From contig OZ245003.1 of assembly GCA_965223425.1 (NCBI GenBank), positions 1,696,001 to 1,760,000 of the forward strand: a stretch of 64,000 bases of DNA, written 5' to 3'. Of this stretch, positions 49 to 56,031 are shown piece after piece (within the stretch, counting starts at the first letter, position 1; each line of letters begins with the position of its first letter). A model generated the notes under the pieces. It was not told the DNA's origin, did not search any database, and saw only the letters and a list, made by a program, of their open reading frames with translations. This DNA is from Nitrosopumilus sp. GTDB lineage: Archaea; Thermoproteota; Nitrososphaeria; Nitrososphaerales; Nitrosopumilaceae. The position numbers were made by a program, and so were the translations under genes.

Positions 49-714
49 ATGGCAAAACAAATTCTCAAACAGATTGCAAAAGCAATCGCAATAACCGTGA
101 TTGTAGTGATTACGGCATCCATTGTGTGGACATTTGTTGTTCCGATGCTGCCACTGAGCCAAGTGTCAGATATTGTAGAAGAGAATGTGAAAGAGCCGTT
201 AGAGAAACTTGTTTCACAAACACCGCTTGCACCAGATGAGCAAGTCACAAATGGAACGCCAAAGAACAATGACGCCCCATCGTCATACGATGACATTGAC
301 GACCCGCCATCGGACATAGTTACCTCATATGATCCACCAGACATGGATTTTCTGAACAGTGGCACTGTAACCAAAGTCATTGACGGCGACACGATTGATA
401 TCGACAACATGCGATTCAGACTTGCTCTGATAGACACTCCTGAGAGAGGCGAGGCCGGATACAATGAGGCAAGGATGTTCCTGTTGAAGAACTGTCCCGT
501 ACAGTCGTTGGCACTGTATGATATCGACGACAAACAGAAGACGGACAAGTACGGACGATACATAGGAAAGGTATGGTGTTATGGATATCCACCTGTCGTT
601 CCTGAAAATTCCATGAACAGCAAACTTGTAAACGAGGGACATGCAGTGGTTGTCTCAACGTTTTGCAGGTCAAGCGAATATGGAAATGAGCAGTGGTTAG
701 ACCCACACTGCTAG
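49..714 (+). CDS. Membrane-anchored thermonuclease (SNase-like) family protein
   Basis: N-terminal TM helix; motifs VIDGDTI, RLALIDTPE, DKYGRYIG, LVNEGHA. Confidence 0.85.
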   Translation: MAKQILKQIAKAIAITVIVVITASIVWTFVVPMLPLSQVSDIVEENVKEPLEKLVSQTPLAPDEQVTNGTPKNNDAPSSYDDIDDPPSDIVTSYDPPDMDFLNSGTVTKVIDGDTIDIDNMRFRLALIDTPERGEAGYNEARMFLLKNCPVQSLALYDIDDKQKTDKYGRYIGKVWCYGYPPVVPENSMNSKLVNEGHAVVVSTFCRSSEYGNEQWLDPHC

Positions 715-791
715 TATTGTTCTCTTTCACATACCATCCCCCCCCTTTTTTTCTAATCAAATTTTTTGTACGGACATCTGATTATTTTTTC

Positions 792-867
792 GTGACCTGG
801 CATGTCATCCCAAATCTTGCACCAGTATGTTCAAACATACCTGACAGGCAGGCAAGTGTGGGGATGA
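792..867 (+). ncRNA. Structured intergenic motif, type A, copy 1
   Basis: GTGACCTGGCATGTCATCCC...GGGATGA; outer stem TCATCCC/GGGATGA, CTTGC/GCAAG, inner hairpin TATGT-TCAA-ACATA; preceded by T-tract. Confidence 0.65.
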
Positions 868-868
868 T

Positions 869-954
869 GGTGAGTTTACCTAGCAAGGTAAGGTGTCCGA
901 CTGATAATCGGAATGTCTGTCAGGACAGCGTGGGTTCGAATCCCACACTCACCG
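869..954 (+). tRNA. Class II (long variable arm) tRNA with GAU anticodon and G73 discriminator
   Basis: Acceptor GGTGAGT/ACTCACC-G; D-stem ACC/GGT; anticodon arm TCCGA-CTGATAA-TCGGA; variable arm TGTCT-GTCA-GGACA; T-arm GTGGG-TTCGAAT-CCCAC; no encoded CCA. Confidence 0.85.
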
Positions 955-1009
955 TAATACTCCTGCATATTAAAACATTCAGGAGAGAAATTCAAAAAAG
1001 TGAACAAAA

Positions 1010-1393
1010 ATGGGAATGTATGATGAGGTCGTAGCGGCCATAACATGTCCCTGCTGCAAGAGAAGGTATCTGGATTATGGAATCCAAACAAAGAACTTTC
1101 GGTGCGTACTCTCCAAAATATTTGAAAATGACGACACGAGGAATATTGTGGAGGAAAGGAAATCGTTTGGAAACATAAGGAACGAGACGTTCAAATGTTT
1201 TACATTCTGTGTAATGTGTTCTGCGGGAATCAATATGACAGGAGTCATATCAGAATATGTGTTTCGTGGAGTCAAGGCGGACTCGTTTAATGAGAATATA
1301 AAAAGGTCCGGAACAGATGGAATTGCAATTGATCCCTCCATCATGACAGAAAATGGAAACCATGCAGCAGAAAACGGACTGCTAAAACCCTGA
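1010..1393 (+). CDS. Cys-rich hypothetical protein (MGMYD...CPCC...QTK), copy 1
   Basis: 127 aa ORF, near-identical second copy at 2146-2529. Confidence 0.75.
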   Translation: MGMYDEVVAAITCPCCKRRYLDYGIQTKNFRCVLSKIFENDDTRNIVEERKSFGNIRNETFKCFTFCVMCSAGINMTGVISEYVFRGVKADSFNENIKRSGTDGIAIDPSIMTENGNHAAENGLLKP

Positions 1394-1403
1394 TTATTTT
1401 TTC

Positions 1404-1479
1404 GTGACCTGGCATGTCATCCCAAATCTTGCACCAGTATGTTCAAACATACCTGACAGGCAGGCAAGTGTGGGGATGA
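1404..1479 (+). ncRNA. Structured intergenic motif, type A, copy 2 (followed by a deleted cassette: tRNA 5' 20 nt joined to the 3' end of the 127-aa ORF)
   Basis: Identical to 792-867; 1481-1500 is the tRNA start, then the sequence jumps to CCGGAACAGATGG of the ORF end. Confidence 0.65.
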
Positions 1480-1596
1480 TGGTGAGTTTACCTAGCAAGG
1501 CCGGAACAGATGGAATTGCAATTGATCCCTCCATCATGACAGAAAATGGAAACCATGCAGCAGAAAACGGACTGCTAAAACCCTGATTATTTTTTC

Positions 1597-1672
1597 GTGA
1601 CCTGGCATGTCATCCCAAATCTTGCACCAGTATGTTCAAACATACCTGACAGGCAGGCAAGTGTGGGGATGA
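1597..1672 (+). ncRNA. Structured intergenic motif, type A, copy 3
   Basis: Identical to 792-867. Confidence 0.65.
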
Positions 1673-1673
1673 T

Positions 1674-1828
1674 GGTGAGTTTACCTAGCAAGGTGTCGCC
1701 CCGATGAGACGATTGCTTCTGAATTAACATCGCTGGTTCAAATCCCGCACTAACCTCCATTAGTTGTTTCGTTCAGTGTGCGAGCGTCTTAGAAGTGGAC
1801 ATCGTGGGTTCAAATCCCACACTCACCG
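1674..1828 (+). ncRNA. Expanded tRNA-like RNA (GAU loop, shortened D-arm, ~85-nt variable region containing a second T-arm-like motif), copy 1
   Basis: Same acceptor and T-arm as 869-954; internal GCTGG-TTCAAAT-CCCGC-ACTAACC; identical copy at 3384-3538. Confidence 0.6.
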
Positions 1829-1922
1829 TTACAACCCTCAATATTAGACCATTAATGAGGTAAATTCAAAAGTGAAAACCATGCAGCAGAAAACGGACTG
1901 CTAAAACCCTGATTATTTTTTC

Positions 1923-1998
1923 GTGACCTGGCATGTCATCCCAAATCTTGCACCAGTATGTTCAAACATACCTGACAGGCAGGCAAGTGTGGGGATGA
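1923..1998 (+). ncRNA. Structured intergenic motif, type A, copy 4
   Basis: Identical to 792-867. Confidence 0.65.
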
Positions 1999-2002
1999 TA
2001 AT

Positions 2003-2090
2003 GGTGAGTTTATCTAGTAAGGTAAGATGTCGCCCTGATGAGGCGATTGCTTCTGACGGAGCATCGTGGGTTCAAATCCCACACTCACCG
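2003..2090 (+). tRNA. Second class II tRNA with GAU anticodon and G73 discriminator
   Basis: Acceptor GGTGAGT/ACTCACC-G; D-stem ATC/GAT; anticodon arm TCGCC-CTGATGA-GGCGA; variable arm TGCTTC-TGAC-GGAGCA; T-arm GTGGG-TTCAAAT-CCCAC. Confidence 0.85.
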
Positions 2091-2145
2091 TAATACTCCT
2101 GCATATTAAAACATTCAGGAGAGAAATTCAAAAAAGTGAACAAAA

Positions 2146-2529
2146 ATGGGAATGTATGATGAGGTCGTAGCGACCATAACATGTCCCTGCTGCAAGAGAA
2201 GGTATCTGGATTATGGAATCCAAACAAAGAACTTTCGGTGCGTACTCTCCAAAATATTTGAAAATGACGACACGAGGAATATTGTGGAGGAGAGGAAATC
2301 GTTTGGAAACATAAGGAACGAGACGTTCAAATGTTTTACATTCTGTGTAATGTGTTCTGCGGGAATCAATATGACAGGAGTCATATCAGAATATGTGTTT
2401 CGTGGAGTCAAGGCGGACTCGTTTAATGAGAATATAAAAAGGCCCGGAACAGATGGAATTGCAATTGATCCCTCCATCATGACAGAAAATGGAAACCATG
2501 CAGCAGAAAACGGACTGCTAAAACCCTGA
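2146..2529 (+). CDS. Cys-rich hypothetical protein, copy 2
   Basis: 2 aa differences from 1010-1393. Confidence 0.75.
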   Translation: MGMYDEVVATITCPCCKRRYLDYGIQTKNFRCVLSKIFENDDTRNIVEERKSFGNIRNETFKCFTFCVMCSAGINMTGVISEYVFRGVKADSFNENIKRPGTDGIAIDPSIMTENGNHAAENGLLKP

Positions 2530-2539
2530 TTATTTTTTT

Positions 2540-2608
2540 GTGACCTGGCAATCCTTCCAAACCCGCATCAGATGAGCAATCATCCTGACAGGCAGACGGG
2601 TGTGGGAA
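2540..2608 (+). ncRNA. Structured intergenic motif, type B, copy 1
   Basis: GTGACCTGGCAATCC-TTCCAAACCCG...ATGA-GCAA-TCAT...TGACAGGCAGA-CGGGTGTGGGAA. Confidence 0.65.
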
Positions 2609-2645
2609 TGGCGCGGTGTTTGAGACATCAAAGGTAAAACATACA

Positions 2646-2975
2646 ATGAATGCAAAAGGAGCCATAACACATCTGGTAAAAAGGCCGATGGGAGTCGTCT
2701 TTACAGGAATGCTGATTTTTGGGCTGTTCCTGATGATTGGAGGTGACTCGGGCGTACCGGAAATACTGAGAATATGGCCAGTCTACGGAGTGTTTATTAT
2801 TCCTGCCATAGTAGGAATAACTATGCTGCTACTTACTGCTGATGAGGTATCCAAGATACACGGACGTTTTGACTCAGTAGAGTCAAAGCTGGACAAGCTG
2901 GACAATATAGAGTCAAAGCTGGACAGCATAGAGTCAATTCTGAAAGAGATAGCGGGATATCTAAAACCAAAGTAG
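2646..2975 (+). CDS. Small 2-TM membrane protein with C-terminal coiled coil, copy 1
   Basis: Two hydrophobic helices then heptad repeats (SKLDKLDNIESKLDSIE); paralog at 6259-6609. Confidence 0.75.
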   Translation: MNAKGAITHLVKRPMGVVFTGMLIFGLFLMIGGDSGVPEILRIWPVYGVFIIPAIVGITMLLLTADEVSKIHGRFDSVESKLDKLDNIESKLDSIESILKEIAGYLKPK

Positions 2976-3007
2976 CACACGGCAGTTCTCACACATTCAT
3001 TTTTTAT

Positions 3008-3077
3008 CTGACCTGGCAATCCTTCCAAACCCCGTATCAGATGAGCAATCATCCTGACAGGCAGACGGGTGTGGGAA
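3008..3077 (+). ncRNA. Structured intergenic motif, type B, copy 2
   Basis: Near-identical to 2540-2608. Confidence 0.65.
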
Positions 3078-3111
3078 AGGCATCAGACATTTGCGATGTC
3101 CTAGATCAAAA

Positions 3112-3276
3112 ATGAAAAACTATGAAGAAAATTTTGAAGAATGGTGTGCAGAATATGAAAACACAATGCACAGCAATGGTTCTGAAATTATGACCCGTAC
3201 GGACGGCGACATCGGAATCAAATACGTTGTCAGGAAAGACACCGACGGATGTGGCGCATACCTCATCTGGGAGTAA
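3112..3276 (+). CDS. Small acidic hypothetical protein
   Basis: 54-aa ORF filling the cassette between two motifs. Confidence 0.5.
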   Translation: MKNYEENFEEWCAEYENTMHSNGSEIMTRTDGDIGIKYVVRKDTDGCGAYLIWE

Positions 3277-3306
3277 TTACAACCTGAAAACACCAACTAT
3301 TTTTTC

Positions 3307-3382
3307 GTGACCTGGCATGTCATCCCAAATCTTGCACCAGTATGTTCAAACATACCTGACAGGCAGGCAAGTGTGGGGATGA
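3307..3382 (+). ncRNA. Structured intergenic motif, type A, copy 5
   Basis: Identical to 792-867. Confidence 0.65.
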
Positions 3383-3383
3383 T

Positions 3384-3538
3384 GGTGAGTTTACCTAGCA
3401 AGGTGTCGCCCCGATGAGACGATTGCTTCTGAATTAACATCGCTGGTTCAAATCCCGCACTAACCTCCATTAGTTGTTTCGTTCAGTGTGCGAGCGTCTT
3501 AGAAGTGGACATCGTGGGTTCAAATCCCACACTCACCG
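3384..3538 (+). ncRNA. Expanded tRNA-like RNA, copy 2
   Basis: Identical to 1674-1828. Confidence 0.6.
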
Positions 3539-3594
3539 TAATACTCCTGCATATTAAAACATTCAGGAGAAAAATTCAAAAAAAGTGATACAAA

Positions 3595-3726
3595 ATGTTC
3601 GAAGAGGCAAAGTACAAACTCAAAAGAAGCGTCTACAAAAAGACAATTTGTAGAAACTGCAAAAGGGAACGATGGGAAGGGCACCCCGAACTCAACGAAT
3701 GTGATTGCTGTCAGATAGGTCTCTGA
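3595..3726 (+). CDS. 43-aa putative Zn-finger microprotein (not in ORF track)
   Basis: MFEEAKYKLKRSVYKKTICRNCKRERWEGHPELNECDCCQIGL; same upstream leader as the 127-aa ORFs. Confidence 0.55.
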   Translation: MFEEAKYKLKRSVYKKTICRNCKRERWEGHPELNECDCCQIGL

Positions 3727-3771
3727 TTTTTCTGCAATGCCTTGTTGAAAGGTTCCAAAACCATATTTTTT

Positions 3772-3840
3772 GTGACCTGGCAATCCTTCCAAACCCGTAT
3801 CTGATGAGCAATCATCCTGACAGGCAGACGGGTGTGGGAA
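3772..3840 (+). ncRNA. Structured intergenic motif, type B, copy 3
   Basis: Near-identical to 2540-2608. Confidence 0.65.
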
Positions 3841-3974
3841 AGGCAAAAATGCTTGCGGCATTTATGAAAAAATATGCAAGAAAAAGACACAACAATCAAA
3901 ATAAGAACCGGTCTGATTCGACGACAGCAAGTCATCTTTGTTGCAATGATGGCAGTCGGGCATTCCTGATTACC

Positions 3975-4304
3975 ATGAGCCAGCTAGTGGACCAAAGACT
4001 CCTAAGCGAGGGCATAGCCTTTTTTACCATTGGATTCGTAGGAATACTAATGTCCTGGACTACAATGGATATCGGAGCTGGCATCAAGGAGGCAATACAT
4101 GAGGTCGGCCAGCAAAATCAAAGGGCAATTGCCGAAAGCAATCAAAGATTTGACAAGACTCTAAACCGCATTGCCGAATCCCAAAAAGATATTGCCGAAT
4201 CCCAAAAAGATATTGCCAAGGTGTTAGACAATGTCACAAAATCTCAGGAACGCATGCACAAATCCCAAGACGACATCAAAGACACGATAAAAAACAAAGA
4301 CTAG
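3975..4304 (+). CDS. TM plus coiled-coil protein
   Basis: One TM helix followed by IAESQKD heptads. Confidence 0.7.
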   Translation: MSQLVDQRLLSEGIAFFTIGFVGILMSWTTMDIGAGIKEAIHEVGQQNQRAIAESNQRFDKTLNRIAESQKDIAESQKDIAKVLDNVTKSQERMHKSQDDIKDTIKNKD

Positions 4305-4331
4305 GTTCTTCAAACATCCAAACATTTTTTC

Positions 4332-4407
4332 GTGACTGGGTCATACAGTCCAAACCCGTTTTACCTTTGGCGCAAGCCGCAGGCCGACCCAGCGGACGGG
4401 TGTGGGA
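4332..4407 (+). ncRNA. Structured intergenic motif, divergent type C
   Basis: CTGGGTC/GACCCAG pairing, TCCA-A-ACCCG/CGGGT-G-TGGG stem, TGGC-GCAA-GCCG hairpin. Confidence 0.65.
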
Positions 4408-4808
4408 TATAATGAATTCTCATATGAGAATAAGCGTCCAGATGAAAGACGATACTTTCATAGCAATATAACGTCTGTTCTGGCACGTAACATCTGCCAG
4501 AAATACGACCAAACGACAAAGGTTTGGGAGTGATCCTGGTTGCTATAAAAACGATAGCAACATTCACAGAAATGCGACCAAACGACAAAAGCATGCAATG
4601 CCGACAGCACATGGCATCCTTTCCCAGTACGACACGGTATGTCAAATAACAGGCAGACTATGGATTATTGCGCTTGATGATAATCCACCATCCAGATATT
4701 TTTTAGCATAGCCGAGGCTATGGGCGGATGACGACATCAGCTGGGGATATGATGCCAGGCGCTTCAGACATCGTGCATGTGTTTTGTGAAAAAAAGGAGT
4801 GAAACCAA

Positions 4809-6119
4809 ATGGTTTTAAAAAATACAATCAATACAAGTACAAGTATTAAAAATGTACAAAATCAGTCAGTAGGCAAGAAAGGCAGGATCTCAAACAGGGA
4901 TCTCATAAGCATCAGCAGAAATCTGAGTGATCTTGCAAACGGATACATCACGTACAAAACGTACAGGGACGGACGTACCGGCTTCTTCCGTAACAGCACA
5001 ATGATAGCCGTCCTGGAAGAAGGAATGGTAACAACACTGTTTGGCGGTGAGCCAAGGCAGGCAAGCGTGGCATCATTGCTGGATGGCGCATCCCGCAACG
5101 AAGGCATCAAAAAAGAAATTGCACAATGTGCAAGATTTGCCGCAGACTACACCCCCGCAGACGAGGTGGATTCTGAGAAGGACAAGGCCCAGATGCACAG
5201 GGCAGACTCCAGAAGGCCGACAATCAAGGACCGACTCGTGCTGTACTTTGCCGGAATGTCAGATGCCAGCATCCCATGCATGGTGCACGGCAAGGACAAA
5301 TTCAAGATTCTTGTGCCACACAAAGGTACGACAAGAGTTTTTGAAATCAACCGGTCAGAATTCGGCGGAATATCAAAACTGGTAAGAATGGTGCTCAGAA
5401 GGAACCACCAAAAACGCAAATTCACGGCACCTACAGACGAGGTCAAGTTTGCAATAAGTGACGCCGCACGCCTCCCAACGAGAAGAAGCGCCACGTCACA
5501 TGTCACACAGGGCCGCGTGGAACTCTCCGTGATCAGCCCCAGAGAAGAGGTGATAGAGAAAACAACAACGGTACTGGCATCTCTGATAAAATGCGAGGGG
5601 TTTGAAAGAATCCTATCTGAGGAGACAGAGTCATACCAGGCAGAGGAAGTCATCTATGAAAGATTCGGACCAGAAAAACTGCCAACCATCCCGGTGTGGT
5701 TTCCTACCGATGTCACTGCCAACGCAAAAATGGCACACGGAATGGAACGCATCCACGGAACGGAACCTGTAAGAAAGGTATCAAAACACACCACCCGCAA
5801 ATTCTATGGCGCCAAAGAGTCTGAGCTTGAGGATATTGAAGCAAGCAAGAGACACACATATGAGCAAATCCACGCTGCAATGAAATACATAAGGGAGAAC
5901 GGATACTGTACTTGCAATGAGAAGTGCATGTGTGCCGATTTGCCATACGAGGAGAACACCCTGAACATCGCAGAGGTGGCAGACATCTGCTCAGGCATGA
6001 AGGTCGAAGATCTGAGTCTTCTCATGCAGACAATGAAAAGCTGCAATGTCTTGGGGCCAGAGTATTCAGTTGTCTGCTCTGCTGCCGCACGGCTCAGATC
6101 ACAGAACAGTGCGAAATAG
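4809..6119 (+). CDS. Hypothetical protein (436 aa, C-terminal Cys cluster)
   Basis: Long ORF preceded by GGAGTG; no family recognised. Confidence 0.75.
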   Translation: MVLKNTINTSTSIKNVQNQSVGKKGRISNRDLISISRNLSDLANGYITYKTYRDGRTGFFRNSTMIAVLEEGMVTTLFGGEPRQASVASLLDGASRNEGIKKEIAQCARFAADYTPADEVDSEKDKAQMHRADSRRPTIKDRLVLYFAGMSDASIPCMVHGKDKFKILVPHKGTTRVFEINRSEFGGISKLVRMVLRRNHQKRKFTAPTDEVKFAISDAARLPTRRSATSHVTQGRVELSVISPREEVIEKTTTVLASLIKCEGFERILSEETESYQAEEVIYERFGPEKLPTIPVWFPTDVTANAKMAHGMERIHGTEPVRKVSKHTTRKFYGAKESELEDIEASKRHTYEQIHAAMKYIRENGYCTCNEKCMCADLPYEENTLNIAEVADICSGMKVEDLSLLMQTMKSCNVLGPEYSVVCSAAARLRSQNSAK

Positions 6120-6151
6120 CACACGGCAGTTCTCACACATTCATTTTTTAT

Positions 6152-6221
6152 CTGACCTGGCAATCCTTCCAAACCCCGTATCAGATGAGCAATCATCCTG
6201 ACAGGCAGACGGGTGTGGGAA
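6152..6221 (+). ncRNA. Structured intergenic motif, type B, copy 4
   Basis: Identical to 3008-3077. Confidence 0.65.
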
Positions 6222-6258
6222 AGGCGCGGTGTTTGAGACATCAAAGGTAAAACATACA

Positions 6259-6609
6259 ATGAATGCAAAGGGAGCCATAACACATCTGGTAAAAAGGCCG
6301 ATGGGAGTCGTCTTTACAGGAATGCTGATTTTTGGGCTGTTCCTGATGATTGGAGGTGACTCGGGCGTACCGGAAATACTGAGAATATGGCCAGTCTACG
6401 GAGTGTTTATTATTCCTGCCATAGTAGGAATAACTATGCTGCTACTTACTGCTGATGAGGTATCCAAGATACACGGACGTTTTGACTCAGTAGAGTCCAG
6501 TTTGGGTAGAATAGAGTCAAAGTTGGGTGGAATAGATACAAAGCTGGACAAGCTGGACAGCATAGAGTCAATCCTGAAAGAGATAGCGGGATATCTAAAA
6601 CCAAAGTAG
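6259..6609 (+). CDS. Small 2-TM coiled-coil membrane protein, copy 2
   Basis: Identical to 2646-2975 except in the heptad region. Confidence 0.75.
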   Translation: MNAKGAITHLVKRPMGVVFTGMLIFGLFLMIGGDSGVPEILRIWPVYGVFIIPAIVGITMLLLTADEVSKIHGRFDSVESSLGRIESKLGGIDTKLDKLDSIESILKEIAGYLKPK

Positions 6610-6641
6610 CACACGGCAGTTCTCACACATTCATTTTTTAT

Positions 6642-6711
6642 CTGACCTGGCAATCCTTCCAAACCCCGTATCAGATGAGCAATCATCCTGACAGGCAGAC
6701 GGGTGTGGGAA
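6642..6711 (+). ncRNA. Structured intergenic motif, type B, copy 5
   Basis: Identical to 3008-3077. Confidence 0.65.
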
Positions 6712-6939
6712 AGGCGCGGTGTTTGAGACACCAGTTTTTTACTCAGAAAAATTTCACAAATAGCAAGAGTGCACAGTGCACACAATTTTGTCATGCAAGT
6801 GATGATCAAATACATTCATCTGAATGAAAAACATCTACGGAATTTTTTCCGTCAAAAACAAAAAACACCGTCTGGGACATGTTCCCGGAAAAAAACCAAA
6901 GAATGTTCTTTGGAATAATCAACAAAGGAGGTTGATAAA

Positions 6940-24911: not shown

Positions 24912-25196
24912 ATGACCTGGACACGGAAGATAATCGGCGACGGCATTCCCGGTGTGATAACACCAGCTGAGATACGCAATGCCATTGGAAACTATGAGAT
25001 GGCGTTTTTCAGAAAAAATGGAAAATGGCGTCTCGGACCGAATGTCCTCTCATCATACAACGGCACTGAGGACTGCGGCATAGATCTGCTCCATGACACA
25101 GACGAATGTGATTTTTCAGAGGACTATACTGTCACTGATTATATCACCAGTGTCCTTGATGCACACGAAGATGCAGAAAGTGAACGGCTCCGTTGA
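24912..25196 (+). CDS. Hypothetical protein
   Basis: 94-aa ORF. Confidence 0.55.
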   Translation: MTWTRKIIGDGIPGVITPAEIRNAIGNYEMAFFRKNGKWRLGPNVLSSYNGTEDCGIDLLHDTDECDFSEDYTVTDYITSVLDAHEDAESERLR

Positions 25197-25360
25197 ATGG
25201 AGCAGTGTCCACTTGACTACATCTACAATGACTTTGTGGCAGAGTCAAAGAAATGGAACGGCTCCGTTTAATGGAGCAGTGTCCACTTGACTACATCTAC
25301 AATGACTTTGTGGCAGAGTCAAAGAAATGGAACGGCTCCGTTTAATGGAGCAGTGTCCAC
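25182..25360 (+). repeat. 74-bp tandem repeat x2.4 (31-nt palindromic unit three times, 43-nt unit twice)
   Basis: GAACGGCTCCGTT(G/T)AATGGAGCAGTGTCCAC at 25182, 25256, 25330. Confidence 0.85.
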
Positions 25361-25396
25361 CTTTCTGAAAACAGATCAACAAAGGAGGTTGATAAC

Positions 25397-35122: not shown

Positions 35123-39279
<4,157 letters not shown>

Positions 39280-39280
<1 letters not shown>

Positions 39281-39909
39281 TGCAGGACAATATCACCGAC
39301 TTTGCCCTTGAAGAGTACAGGGAACACTACAAGAACGATAAAATAGAAAAAAACGACATCTTCTTCTACATCTACGGCATTTTACACCACGGCGGGTACA
39401 GGAAGAAATATGCAAACAACCTGACACGTGAGCTGCCACACATTCCCATGGCACCGGACTTTTTAGCATTTTCAAAAATTGGAAAAGAATTGGCAGATCT
39501 ACATTTATCATATGAGACATGCAAGAGATATGATTTGGGAAAACCAAAATCAGAATTTGGCAGATACGCAAAGATGTCGTTTGCAAAAAAGAAGGAAAAC
39601 GGCAGGCAGGTAACTGACACTACAACCCTGAGGATCAACGGGATAACCGTCTTTGAGAATATCCCTGATGTCAAGTACAGGGTAAACGGCAGGACGCCAT
39701 TGGAATGGGCCATAGACCGCTACAGGAGAACAGTAGACAAGGACAGCGGCATAGTAAATGACGCAACAGACATTGACGTCATACCGCTCATTGAAAGGCT
39801 CATACATGTAGGGGTGGAATCAGACAGGCTGGTATCCGGACTTCCAAAGGAGTTTGAGCCGAAAAACTGGGACCCGAAAAAAACAGGAATGGACAAGTTC
39901 ATTGGTTGA
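39280..39909 (+). CDS. Type ISP RM C-terminal domain encoded as a separate ORF
   Basis: DNITD, DIFFYIYGILH, LPHIP, GKELADLHLSYE, Y.VNGRTPLEW. Confidence 0.8.
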
Positions 39910-54608: not shown

Positions 54609-54714
54609 TTGAATCATAAAAATTTTTCCGAAAGATTTAGATCCATTTTGATCGCCGCAACAGGTAATGGAATCTTCAGAACAGACGATACGCAGGCTGC
54701 AAAGGGAGCTCAAG

Positions 54715-54894
54715 CAAAAGGACACAGCAATCAGGCAAAAGGACACAGCAATCAGGCAAAAGGACACAGCAATCAGGCAAAAGGACACAGCAATCAGGCA
54801 AAAGGACACAGCAATCAGGCAAAAGGACACAGCAATCAGGCAGAACAACACAGCAATCAGGCAGAACAACACAGCAATCAGGCAGAACAACACA
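54715..54894 (+). repeat. 21-bp tandem repeat x8.6 encoding QKDTAIR/QNNTAIR heptads
   Basis: CAAAAGGACACAGCAATCAGG units; cut off by IS630 insertion. Confidence 0.9.
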
Positions 54895-54896
54895 TA

Positions 54897-56031
54897 GTAA
54901 GCACATAAAAAAACTGAATCATTTTGACAATTATTTTTGGCCAAAAGATCCAAGACCGGCCATATCGCACACACTGCATGTACAAACAAAAAAAGAGACA
55001 GGCTGCAGGGGGGCAAAATTTCTGCCAAACACCGGCGTTGCAGACCTCAAAAGGGCATACAAAAAAGAGACCGATCCCAGAAGGCGCGACAGGCTGCTTG
55101 CGTACATGCAGCGCAAGGACGGCGTGCCGCTAGACAGGATCGGAAGAATGCTGGGAAGGCCCAAGTCCACCATATCTGCATGGCTCAACCGCGCACAAGA
55201 CGAGGGAATACGCGCAAGGTTCGAGCGCAGCGGCAGGGGACGAAAGCGTTTGATAGACGGACTGCAGACAAGACAGCTTGCAGCAGACATGGATGCGGGG
55301 CCGGAGTCATGCGGCTTTGAGAGCAGCCTGTGGGATTCCAGCCTCGCAAGGCTGCACATCAAGCGAAAGTTCGGCGTGCAGTACAGCAAGGCAGGCGTGC
55401 TGCAGCTGGTCAGGGAGATGGGCTTTTCGTGGAGCAGGGCGCGTCCAAAAAACCCCAAGTCAGCCTCAAAAAGAAAGCAAAAAGAGTTTCAGGAGCGGGC
55501 AAAAAAACCCGTTGCAGAAAAGTCGGCGCAGGGATACACCGTACTGGCAAACGACGAGTCCTCGATTCAAAAGGCATCAAACAGGCCCGGCTACGGGTGG
55601 AGAAGGCGCGGCAGACATGCCACATCCCCATCTTTTTTGTCACGCAAGAGAAGATACATTTGGAGTCCTGTCAGCAAACGCATTTTACCTTATGTTCTAT
55701 GAAAAGCCAGACAGCGACGGCTTTTGCAGCTTTTTGGAACGGGTTCACAAAAGATTCGGCAGGGTGCTGCTGTCTGTGGACAATGCGTCATATCACAAAT
55801 CCAAAAAGGCAAGGGAGTTTCTGGAAAGATACAACGGCGAGACAGTTCTGGAATGCCTGCTGCCGTACACGCCGGAGCTTAATCCCATTGAGATGCAGTG
55901 GAGGGTGATAAAGCGGGTACTGTCTGCAAAGGTGTTTGGCACGCTAGATGAGATGGAGCAGTCAGTACGCAAGCTGTTTGCCAGAAAGGAGATCCTGCCT
56001 GTGAAAATGTTCAATTATTTAATATGCTAAC
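54897..56031 (+). mobile_element. IS630-family element with frameshifted transposase
   Basis: TA flanks; imperfect TIRs; ANDES, DNASYH, PYTPELNPIE..W motifs. Confidence 0.85.

Follow-up and report, generated by a model that had tools for sequence, protein, structure and literature searches.

Does a transfer RNA (tRNA) gene whose body and anticodon point to different amino acids encode a working tRNA and, if so, which amino acid would it insert? The question is raised by two genes in a 64,000-nucleotide (nt) stretch of Nitrosopumilus sp. (GenBank assembly GCA_965223425.1, contig OZ245003.1, positions 1,696,001 to 1,760,000 of the forward strand), here called the window; positions are those of the window unless another sequence is named by its handle in our set (C1, L052 and the like). 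An earlier note on the same DNA, made without database searches, had read both genes (869-954 and 2003-2090) as serine-bodied tRNAs with the isoleucine anticodon GAU, possibly inserting serine at isoleucine codons. Judged from the sequence comparisons reported here, the phenomenon is real and extends well beyond the two window genes.

Structure and integrity of the two tRNA genes

869-954, plus strand: intact class II tRNA of 86 nt; Rfam RF00005 59.6 bits (E 2.2e-10), ARAGORN; acceptor GGTGAGT/ACTCACC, G73, anticodon loop CTGATAA (GAU, A37), G30:C40
2003-2090, plus strand: second intact class II tRNA, of 88 nt, with acceptor and T arm as in 869-954; RF00005 56.1 bits (E 2.2e-9); anticodon loop CTGATGA (GAU, G37), C30:G40

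ARAGORN recovered exactly two tRNAs in the 64-kb window (868-955 and 2002-2091), each labelled tRNA-Ile(gat). Both genes matched RF00005 over their full length, and no further match in the window exceeded the gathering score of the family (29 bits). Each forms a 7/5 cloverleaf, with a 7-bp acceptor, a 5-bp T stem (T arm GTGGG-TTCRAAT-CCCAC), a 5-bp anticodon stem closing a 7-nt loop, U8, A14 and G18G19, and variable regions of 17 and 19 nt, respectively, with stems of 5-6 bp. The complete 7/5 cloverleaves, acceptor, G73, long variable arm and anticodon GAT described in the earlier note were thus borne out by ARAGORN and by the RF00005 scores; the D stem was there too, but can be drawn with four pairs (ACCT/AGGT and ATCT/AGAT) instead of the three stated. 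An 8-bp acceptor was considered and dropped; a possible eighth pair U-1:G73 is drawn by ARAGORN for ordinary tRNA-Ser as well. A split or permuted tRNA was likewise considered and dropped.

Of 89 aligned columns, 22 differ between the two genes, 12 of them in stems. These stem differences amount to six double-sided pair changes (D stem 1, anticodon stem 3, variable arm 2), all of them still standard pairs and located in the three helices in which compensation had been claimed, and no one-sided change was found among the aligned stem positions. When the window pair was aligned with six relatives (eight sequences from seven genomes), 98.1% of 208 cells were paired and 8 of 26 pairs had changed on both sides, values attained by 0 of 500 shuffles, while slid controls paired at 33-47%. 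The RF00005 scores, these compensatory changes and the cloverleaf pairing kept across relatives show both tRNAs to be genuine and under structural selection. Short-read contigs from other public runs matched 860-968 and 1970/1984-2091 without any difference; being fragmented in the repeat region, they confirm the genes themselves, the order of the surrounding array and its 193-nt tandem duplication lying outside what they cover.

Seryl-type features of the bodies

According to passages of PMC9976931, serine identity resides in the variable arm and not in the anticodon; G73, followed by G30:C40, is a strong element for bacterial and archaeal seryl-tRNA synthetase (SerRS), a switch from A73 to G73 turns leucine into serine identity, and archaeal LeuRS requires A73 together with specific variable-arm bases. 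The two window genes were compared with covariance models of the lineage, built from 10 canonical tRNA-Ser and 10 canonical tRNA-Leu of four or five genomes of the genus. The serine model gave 68.9 bits for 869-954 and 61.2 bits for 2003-2090 and the leucine model 47.6 and 43.4 bits, margins of 21.3 and 17.8 bits in favour of serine; a canonical tRNA-Leu used as control scored 110.7 bits with the leucine and 65.6 bits with the serine model. Every mismatched class II tRNA in the set likewise scored higher with the serine model.

The 3' half of the molecule gave a concordant picture. A 26-nt pattern spanning the T arm, the 3' acceptor strand and G73 matched 79 times, at 57 metagenome and 21 viral loci, where ARAGORN called 75 tRNAs on the matching strand. 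Seventy were bacterial or phage tRNA-Ser (GCU 50, GGA 14, UGA 6), and the other five carried UAU (3), GAA (1) or GUA (1). The acceptor and T-arm half of the window tRNAs is, on this count, a signature of genuine bacterial and phage tRNA-Ser. The four of these with UAU or GAA (L178, L199 and L219 from metagenomes, L243 from a viral contig) are bacterial-type 7/5 tRNAs with the tRNA-Ser acceptor and T-arm signature and an encoded CCA, so that a few serine-type 7/5 tRNAs with A35 exist in bacteria or phages too.

G30:C40 is present in 869-954, as in 10 aligned canonical tRNA-Ser from four other genomes of the genus. The anticodon of both genes is GAU, not a serine anticodon (NGA or GCU), and their long variable arm and G73 contrast with the short variable loop and A73 of the host tRNA-Ile(GAU), a tRNA of 75-77 nt encoded outside the window; the same genome has four ordinary tRNA-Ser genes. 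Taken together, the evidence supports serine-type, not isoleucine-type, bodies. The body assignment made in the earlier note hence stands, and the isotype comparison it suggested, made here with the serine and leucine models, placed both bodies nearer to serine, with an isoleucine anticodon in each.

A family of mismatched tRNAs in Nitrosopumilaceae

The body of the window tRNAs, searched as a pattern of the 5' half, was found in 8 of 151 genomes of the genus, at nine loci, and all genome matches fell within that genus; the pattern had no match in viral contigs, none in metagenome contigs, and one record among genome contigs. The nine loci have a common acceptor and D arm and carry GAU (5), GAA (2), UAU (1) or CAG (1). 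The retention of GAU emphasised in the earlier note consequently applies to both window genes and to five of the nine loci, but not to the body as such, which elsewhere carries GAA, UAU or CAG. One of the two GAA loci has A73 and an anticodon loop lengthened by a 14-nt insertion, and the acceptor of the CAG locus shows two compensatory pair changes.

A covariance model built from the eight-sequence alignment was run over the genus, where practically all genomes gave their ordinary tRNA-Ser(GCU), at about 64-68 bits, and there were additional matches. High-scoring or odd-length matches, all matches of at least 80 nt in four complete genomes, and matches of a second pattern were brought together and read with ARAGORN and by alignment to the model. 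The search of related genomes, recommended in the earlier note, yielded 64 class II sequences with non-serine anticodons in 24 genomes, 59 of them with G73 (canonical tRNA-Leu has A73). A35 occurs in 61 of the 64 (GAA 28, GAU 14, UAU 7, CAG 6, UAA 4, UAG 1, CAU 1), the corresponding amino acids being isoleucine, phenylalanine, leucine and methionine; the three others carry UGU (with a broken acceptor), UCU and AUC. Fully intact members, defined by G73, a loop of 7 nt and unbroken pairing in the acceptor, anticodon and T stems, number 38, of which 37 have A35 and 36 have U33, with A (22) or G (16) at position 37. Several family members carry C33 in place of U33. Random anticodons among homologues had been named beforehand as a sign against missense tRNAs; the outcome lies in between, as the anticodons do vary but all except three hold A35.

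More than one body is involved. A lineage beginning GTCAGGG..., with GAA or GAU, occurs in 13 of the 151 genomes and has three copies in the own genome outside the window, and a GGCAGGA... lineage carries CAG. Other bodies clearly derive from the tRNA-Ser(UGA) or tRNA-Ser(GCU) of the genus and carry UAA, UAU, GAU or CAU, with compensated stem changes, which implies that A35 arose repeatedly. The three own-genome copies of the GTCAGGG... lineage, class II tRNAs with G73 and GAA, lie at C1 1117191-1117282 (minus), 1573167-1573253 (plus) and about 1598695-1598774 (minus).

One genome (L100, L101) has at least nine mismatched class II tRNAs within about 40 kb (GAA 6, GAU 2, CAG 1), each with a conserved module of TATA-like promoter and T-run terminator. 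On the contig of this array, a tandem run of about nine 102-nt model matches lies 70 kb away, at about 114-118 kb. Other genera of the family also hold mismatched tRNAs, with GAU or GAA, and in addition a 101-nt form with the same insertion as the GAA locus above; two genomes flagged as unpublished are in this tally, and no conclusion depends on them. This form, 101-103 nt long with about 14 nt inserted after position 37, occurs in at least three genera (one copy has A73):

L064 1427-1527, minus strand: insertion-bearing form
L256 1501-1601: insertion-bearing form
L258 1501-1601, minus strand: insertion-bearing form
L259 1419-1521: insertion-bearing form

The TCAG of the insertion is able to pair with CTGA of the anticodon loop, as archaeal tRNA introns do. 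We read the insertion as intron-like and as pointing to maturation as a true tRNA. Taken as a whole, these anticodon-mismatched tRNAs form a mobile family with a patchy distribution across Nitrosopumilaceae.

Alanine-marked cousins

Serine and alanine are the two identities assigned by synthetases that are blind to the anticodon, and G3:U70 is the mark of alanine. Four tRNAs of 72-73 nt in the own genome have an acceptor beginning GGGC and G3:U70 as in tRNA-Ala, three with A73 and one with G73, and a comparable tRNA occurs in a relative:

C1 129092-129164, plus strand: G3:U70 tRNA
C1 769460-769531, minus strand: G3:U70 tRNA
C1 1454122-1454193, minus strand: G3:U70 tRNA
C1 1629480-1629551, minus strand: G3:U70 tRNA
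L108 643-714, minus strand: G3:U70 tRNA with GAA, in a relative

The anticodons of the four own-genome tRNAs are GAG, CAG, GAA and AAG, all with A35; three of the four are mismatched at the foot of the anticodon stem.

Cassette array and conjugative element

The region 700-6700 of the window is an array of short cassettes, each headed by a leader repeat of 75-110 nt that precedes tRNAs and open reading frames (ORFs) alike. The leader occurs as two variants, V1 and V2, and 10 of its 12 genomic copies lie in the window. Comparison of the repeats gave the following features:

778-868, plus strand: leader V1, abutting the 5' end of 869-954
1909-2002, plus strand: leader V1, before 2003-2090
1583-1673 and 3298-3383, plus strand: leader V1, before the two degraded tRNA copies
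1390-1480, plus strand: leader V1, before the orphan 5' fragment
2534-2612, 3003-3081, 3766-3844, 6147-6225 and 6637-6715: leader V2, before protein cassettes
1674-1756, plus strand: degraded copy of the 2003-2090 type, 80% identical to 2003-2090; 24.8 bits, below the gathering score
3384-3466, plus strand: identical second degraded copy, within a 295-nt repeat (1577-1871 and 3287-3581)
1797-1828, plus strand: orphan 3' fragment (T arm and 3' acceptor strand), 29/29 identical to the 3' end of 2003-2090; second copy at 3507-3538
1481-1500, plus strand: orphan 5' fragment with the tRNA's initial 20 nt, located where the two copies of a perfect 193-nt tandem duplication meet (1308-1500 and 1501-1693)
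1010-1393, plus strand: 127-aa ORF with Cys motifs, 55 nt downstream of 869-954
2146-2529, plus strand: 98% identical copy of the 127-aa ORF, after the second tRNA

The degraded copy at 1674-1756 has a short D arm, the loop CCGATGA (C33), T at the discriminator position, and mismatches in the acceptor, anticodon and T stems; the 3' fragment at 1797-1828 is also 94% identical over 32 nt to 869-954. By eye, the leader variants retain three nested helices through changed bases, around the invariant TGACCTGGCA and CCTGACAGGCAG. The leader matched no Rfam family, and single-sequence folds were no better than shuffles (z -1.0 and +0.1). A reading as an integron attC site was dropped, no R/L box pattern being seen by eye. 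The 127-aa ORF had no Pfam and no PADLOC match; its homologues occur in just 2 of 400 other genomes of the family, neither with a tRNA beside it; ORF and tRNA are hence not fixed partners. For the other cassette proteins, PADLOC matches were weak or absent.

The 20 kb upstream of the window encode TraG/VirD4-like and VirB4/HerA-like ATPases, a TBP homologue, an MmeI-type enzyme and a ParM-like gene, and the window itself an ArdC-like protein, DUF2958 and a Type ISP restriction enzyme. G+C content is 43-49% up to about 40 kb of the window and 36-39% thereafter. By this gene content, the window tRNAs are cargo of an integrative conjugative element. The picture of the locus given in the earlier note was accurate as to the intactness of the two genes, but the conjugative element, the repeated leader and the degraded copies had been missed. 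The element's own TBP homologue (L052 5509-6018, 14-15 kb upstream of the window; Pfam TBP E 4.9e-10) could matter for the transcription of cassettes and tRNAs.

Transposase modules in relatives

Among 126 ORFs within 1.5 kb of 29 mismatched tRNAs, transposases were the commonest Pfam assignments (rve 6, DDE_Tnp_IS240 6, IS66 4, Mutator 4). One unit recurs, made up of the tRNA, a divergent gene encoding a 54-aa protein, and a co-oriented DDE transposase of about 365 aa; it was seen in L067, L078, L103, L106 and L107, with a transposase of the IS240/rve type bearing a SWIM finger. The 54-aa protein was conserved at nine of ten loci checked. Two copies of the unit in one genome share 84% identity over 1508 nt, in all three parts, and two in another share 77% over 1280 nt; no terminal inverted repeats were found bounding the unit. 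The tRNAs of relatives have TATA-like promoters and T-run terminators of their own. The 54-aa protein had no Pfam match even at E <= 1, and its AlphaFold model (pLDDT 67) was nearest to MazE, VapB and AbrB (E 0.2-1, probability 0.91, TM 0.57), a hint from the model that it may be AbrB/MazE-like.

The own genome contains units of this kind without a tRNA:

C1 about 793940-794195: unit without tRNA
C1 648184-648467: unit without tRNA
C1 917150-917350: unit without tRNA
C1 1832470-1832700: unit without tRNA

The slot between the small gene and the transposase here holds C, D', C' and D box-like motifs with a terminal stem, and we take this sequence, by its box motifs, to resemble a C/D-box small RNA (sRNA).

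Proposed missense tRNAs and the explanations that compete with them

The reading we favour, with about as much confidence as doubt, is that the window genes encode mobile, conditionally expressed missense tRNAs of seryl identity type with the isoleucine anticodon GAU. Maturation of the encoded tRNAs is suggested by the compensated structure, the tertiary marks, the promoters and terminators of relatives and the intron-like insertion. We infer transcription, processing, serylation, decoding and biological role as follows. A precursor of leader and tRNA would be transcribed, RNase P and RNase Z would cut the tRNA from it, and CCA would be added; SerRS, blind to the anticodon, would charge it with serine, and the seryl-tRNA would vie with host tRNA-Ile for AUC and AUU codons, serine replacing isoleucine. 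That A35 is nearly the only choice in independent bodies argues that the anticodon is under selection, whether by the ribosome or by a protein that reads A35. Of all kinds of substitution, serine in a hydrophobic position does the most damage, and for this reason the tRNAs are read as conditionally used and toxic if abundant, and would serve the mobile element in conflict or stress instead of housekeeping decoding. A-to-I editing at position 35 was also considered and dropped: it would not restore serine anticodons in the GAU, UAU or CAG types, and we know of no such activity at this position.

A bolder version, rather unlikely in our estimation, makes the tRNA the effector of conflict between mobile elements: an RNA 'toxin' that would replace hydrophobic residues with serine throughout the proteome, the G3:U70 cousins doing likewise with alanine, silenced by an AbrB/MazE-like repressor or the leader. 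Infection, transfer or stress would set it free, much as in abortive infection or in warfare between elements. Were this true, mobile elements of Nitrosopumilaceae would have recruited both anticodon-blind synthetases against the U-middle column of the codon table.

Several observations weigh against missense decoding by the window genes. The bodies reach just 61-69 bits with the serine model, the level of canonical tRNA-Leu there (65.6), and can therefore be called nearer to serine than to leucine, yet not typical tRNA-Ser. The second gene carries C30:G40 instead of G30:C40. It also has G37, whereas tRNAs reading ANN codons normally carry A37. Both window genes, unlike their relatives, are missing a TATA-like box at -30, the closest T-rich stretch being the start of the leader, on which, as a putative promoter, their transcription would depend. 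Two degraded copies and further fragments adjoin the intact genes. Isoleucine codons are by no means shunned by the element (ATT plus ATC make up 3.8% of codons in its genes and 5.2% in the host), which would therefore damage itself by decoding AUY codons as serine. One genome tolerates at least nine such genes, each with a promoter, which is hard to square with strong toxicity. The A35 counts, finally, come from a biased collection, as its second pattern contained the GAA loop, inflating GAA, most sequences behind the search model were of the GAU type, and the collection leaves aside 1679 weaker matches of the genus scan; the least biased count, the four-genome census of matches of at least 80 nt, gives A35 in 16 of 19 mismatched genes.

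The best placed of the competing explanations, although we think it unlikely, is a tRNA-like module with a role outside translation: a processing signal whose cleavage by RNase P and RNase Z would release leader and downstream mRNA, a stable 5' cap, a promoter donor, or else a sponge or decoy that ties up anticodon nucleases or the synthetases reading A35 (IleRS, LeuRS, MetRS, PheRS). It would suit a window tRNA lodged between a common leader and a co-oriented ORF, the replacement of the tRNA in own-genome transposase modules by a sequence resembling a C/D-box sRNA, likewise a stable excised type of RNA, the C33 of several members and the many copies tolerated per genome. To our knowledge, all synthetases for U-middle codons use A35, and a sponge for them would account for the A35 bias as well. 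A processing signal, however, needs no given anticodon, yet A35 is found in 61 of 64 members and U33 in 36 of the 38 intact ones; the full set of tertiary marks, G73 and the 5-bp T stem are conserved; the insertion can pair with the anticodon loop like an archaeal intron, which we read as a sign of true tRNA maturation; and the relatives' tRNAs, with their own promoter and terminator, are not parts of an mRNA.

That the genes are instead ordinary decoders on an odd chassis, charged by IleRS through GAU and adding capacity for the AUY codons of AT-rich genes (UUY, UUA and AUA in relatives), we regard as clearly improbable. IleRS, PheRS and MetRS do read the anticodon, the anticodons fit common host codons (ATT 3.3%, TTT 2.9%, ATA 2.2%), the element shows no codon avoidance, and multi-copy arrays are tolerated. 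Against this stand the long variable arm, G73 where host tRNA-Ile has A73, and the G37 of 2003-2090. A37 beside U36, the t6A site and an element for IleRS, is found in 869-954. A single body carries isoleucine, phenylalanine and leucine anticodons, for which no one cognate synthetase fits, the class II matches yielded no extra tRNAs for other abundant AT-rich codons (Lys, Asn), and the G3:U70 set has an equal anticodon bias.

Charging with leucine, with class II bodies descending from tRNA-Leu and drifting to neighbouring anticodons, is very improbable. All leucine anticodons share A35 (as stated in passages of PMC9976931), CAG, UAG and UAA occur in the family, and nematode nev-tRNAs with the isoleucine anticodon UAU are leucylated, according to PMC3333845 and PMC4300185; but 59 of 64 members have G73 and not A73, leucine-model scores are lower for all mismatched tRNAs, archaeal LeuRS needs A73 and specific variable-arm bases (passages of PMC9976931), and several bodies are plainly derived from tRNA-Ser. 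Decay, in which the genes would be functionless duplicates of tRNA-Ser(GCU) with a chance C35-to-A mutation, could explain the two degraded copies and orphan halves in the same array and the patchy distribution (8 of 151 genomes), but is hardly credible against six compensatory pairs without a one-sided stem change between the two genes, 98.1% pairing across eight relatives from seven genomes, and the recurrence of A35 in independent bodies.

Relation to known mismatched tRNAs

As candidates for charging with serine, the window tRNAs invite comparison with natural tRNAs whose body and anticodon disagree, which are rare and have so far been described from bacteria (allo-tRNAs, tRNA-ProX) and eukaryotes (nev-tRNAs, human variants). 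The allo-tRNAs of Acidobacteria and other bacteria, as described in passages of Mukai et al. (2017; PMC5389517), share a long variable arm, G73 or U73 and non-serine anticodons, among which UAU (Ile) and leucine anticodons are prominent; toxin-antitoxin and transposon genes lie nearby, active genes stand beside degraded copies, and allo-tRNAs with leucine anticodons insert serine and kill Escherichia coli. They differ in being bacterial, in their 8/4 or 9/3 acceptor/T fold and in a range of 35 anticodons, including GCG and GUC (same source), whereas the window family is archaeal, has the canonical 7/5 fold and is almost restricted to A35. The window tRNAs thus have the seryl marks and a non-serine anticodon but not the fold of allo-tRNAs, and the comparison made in the earlier note holds as an analogy, through seryl features, non-serine anticodons and mobile or antitoxin-like neighbours.

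The nev-tRNAs of nematodes (Hamashima et al., 2012, PMC3333845; Hamashima et al., 2015, PMC4300185; review PMC4033280) are class II tRNAs with a canonical fold, many copies and the anticodons of class I amino acids, including the isoleucine anticodon UAU. They are of leucine type, charged with leucine in vitro and chromosomal (PMC3333845, PMC4300185), whereas the window family has G73, leans towards serine and rides on mobile elements; its members lack the leucine-type body, as seen in G73 and in their lower leucine-model scores. Showing neither the fold of allo-tRNAs nor the leucine-type features of nev-tRNAs, the window tRNAs were filed under neither. The family would stand as the archaeal equivalent of the bacterial allo-tRNAs and the nematode nev-tRNAs, with a canonical fold.

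Serine tRNAs with A35 and an isoleucine or phenylalanine anticodon are also described for yeast, as tS-I(GAU) and tS-F(GAA) (PMC6125640), and for humans, as tRNA-Ser-AGA G35A (PMC9956149, PMC12993449); in these cases isoleucine or phenylalanine codons receive serine. In yeast, tRNA-Ser with GAA or GAU is lethal on accumulation, through serine at phenylalanine or isoleucine codons (PMC6125640). These are single mutations of housekeeping genes or laboratory constructs; the window family, in contrast, comprises diversified lineages kept by compensatory evolution and spread by mobile elements. The tRNA-ProX/ProRSx pair of Streptomyces (passages of PMC11415595) resembles it in combining a body of one identity with anticodons of others and in an unusual position 33; it differs in its proline identity and dedicated synthetase, and no synthetase gene was seen beside window-family tRNAs. 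The literature searched, subscription papers and supplements lying outside that search, contained no description of mismatched class II tRNAs in archaea. None is mentioned in the passages found of PMC11415595 or of the review PMC4033280, which gives nev-tRNAs for eukaryotes only, and the passages found of a survey of thaumarchaeal mobile elements (PMC6563490) treat tRNA genes solely as integration targets.

The family stands out by its place on conjugative and transposable elements, by anticodons almost only for hydrophobic amino acids, and by an alanine-marked set that is equally biased. Should charging of the tRNAs follow the prediction from their bodies, ammonia oxidisers of worldwide abundance would have mobile elements equipped with switches for deliberate mistranslation, and the anticodon bias would be a rare natural readout of the substitutions that are favoured, or tolerated, by selection. 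Without charging, the tRNAs would form a new class of regulatory or decoy RNAs in the shape of a tRNA. In both cases, genome annotation and estimates of codon capacity for Nitrosopumilaceae need correction, since the canonical fold leads standard tools to label these genes 'tRNA-Ile' or 'tRNA-Phe', and the annotation hides mismatched tRNAs.

Other features of the element

Nine genes of the element, between 6917 and 31965 of the window, are directly preceded at their ATG by the repeat AATCAACAAAGGAGGTTGATAA, which places a Shine-Dalgarno-like GGAGG within a TCAAC/GTTGA hairpin. The Type ISP restriction-modification enzyme of 1292 aa is encoded at 35402-39280; an overlapping 250-aa ORF (39157-39909) matches the rest of the same C-terminal specificity domain, and the overlap may reflect a frameshift or a split gene. 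Two tandem repeats were also noted: three 74-nt units upstream of a gene start (25175-25396) and nine 21-nt units within an ORF-dense stretch (54668-54919).

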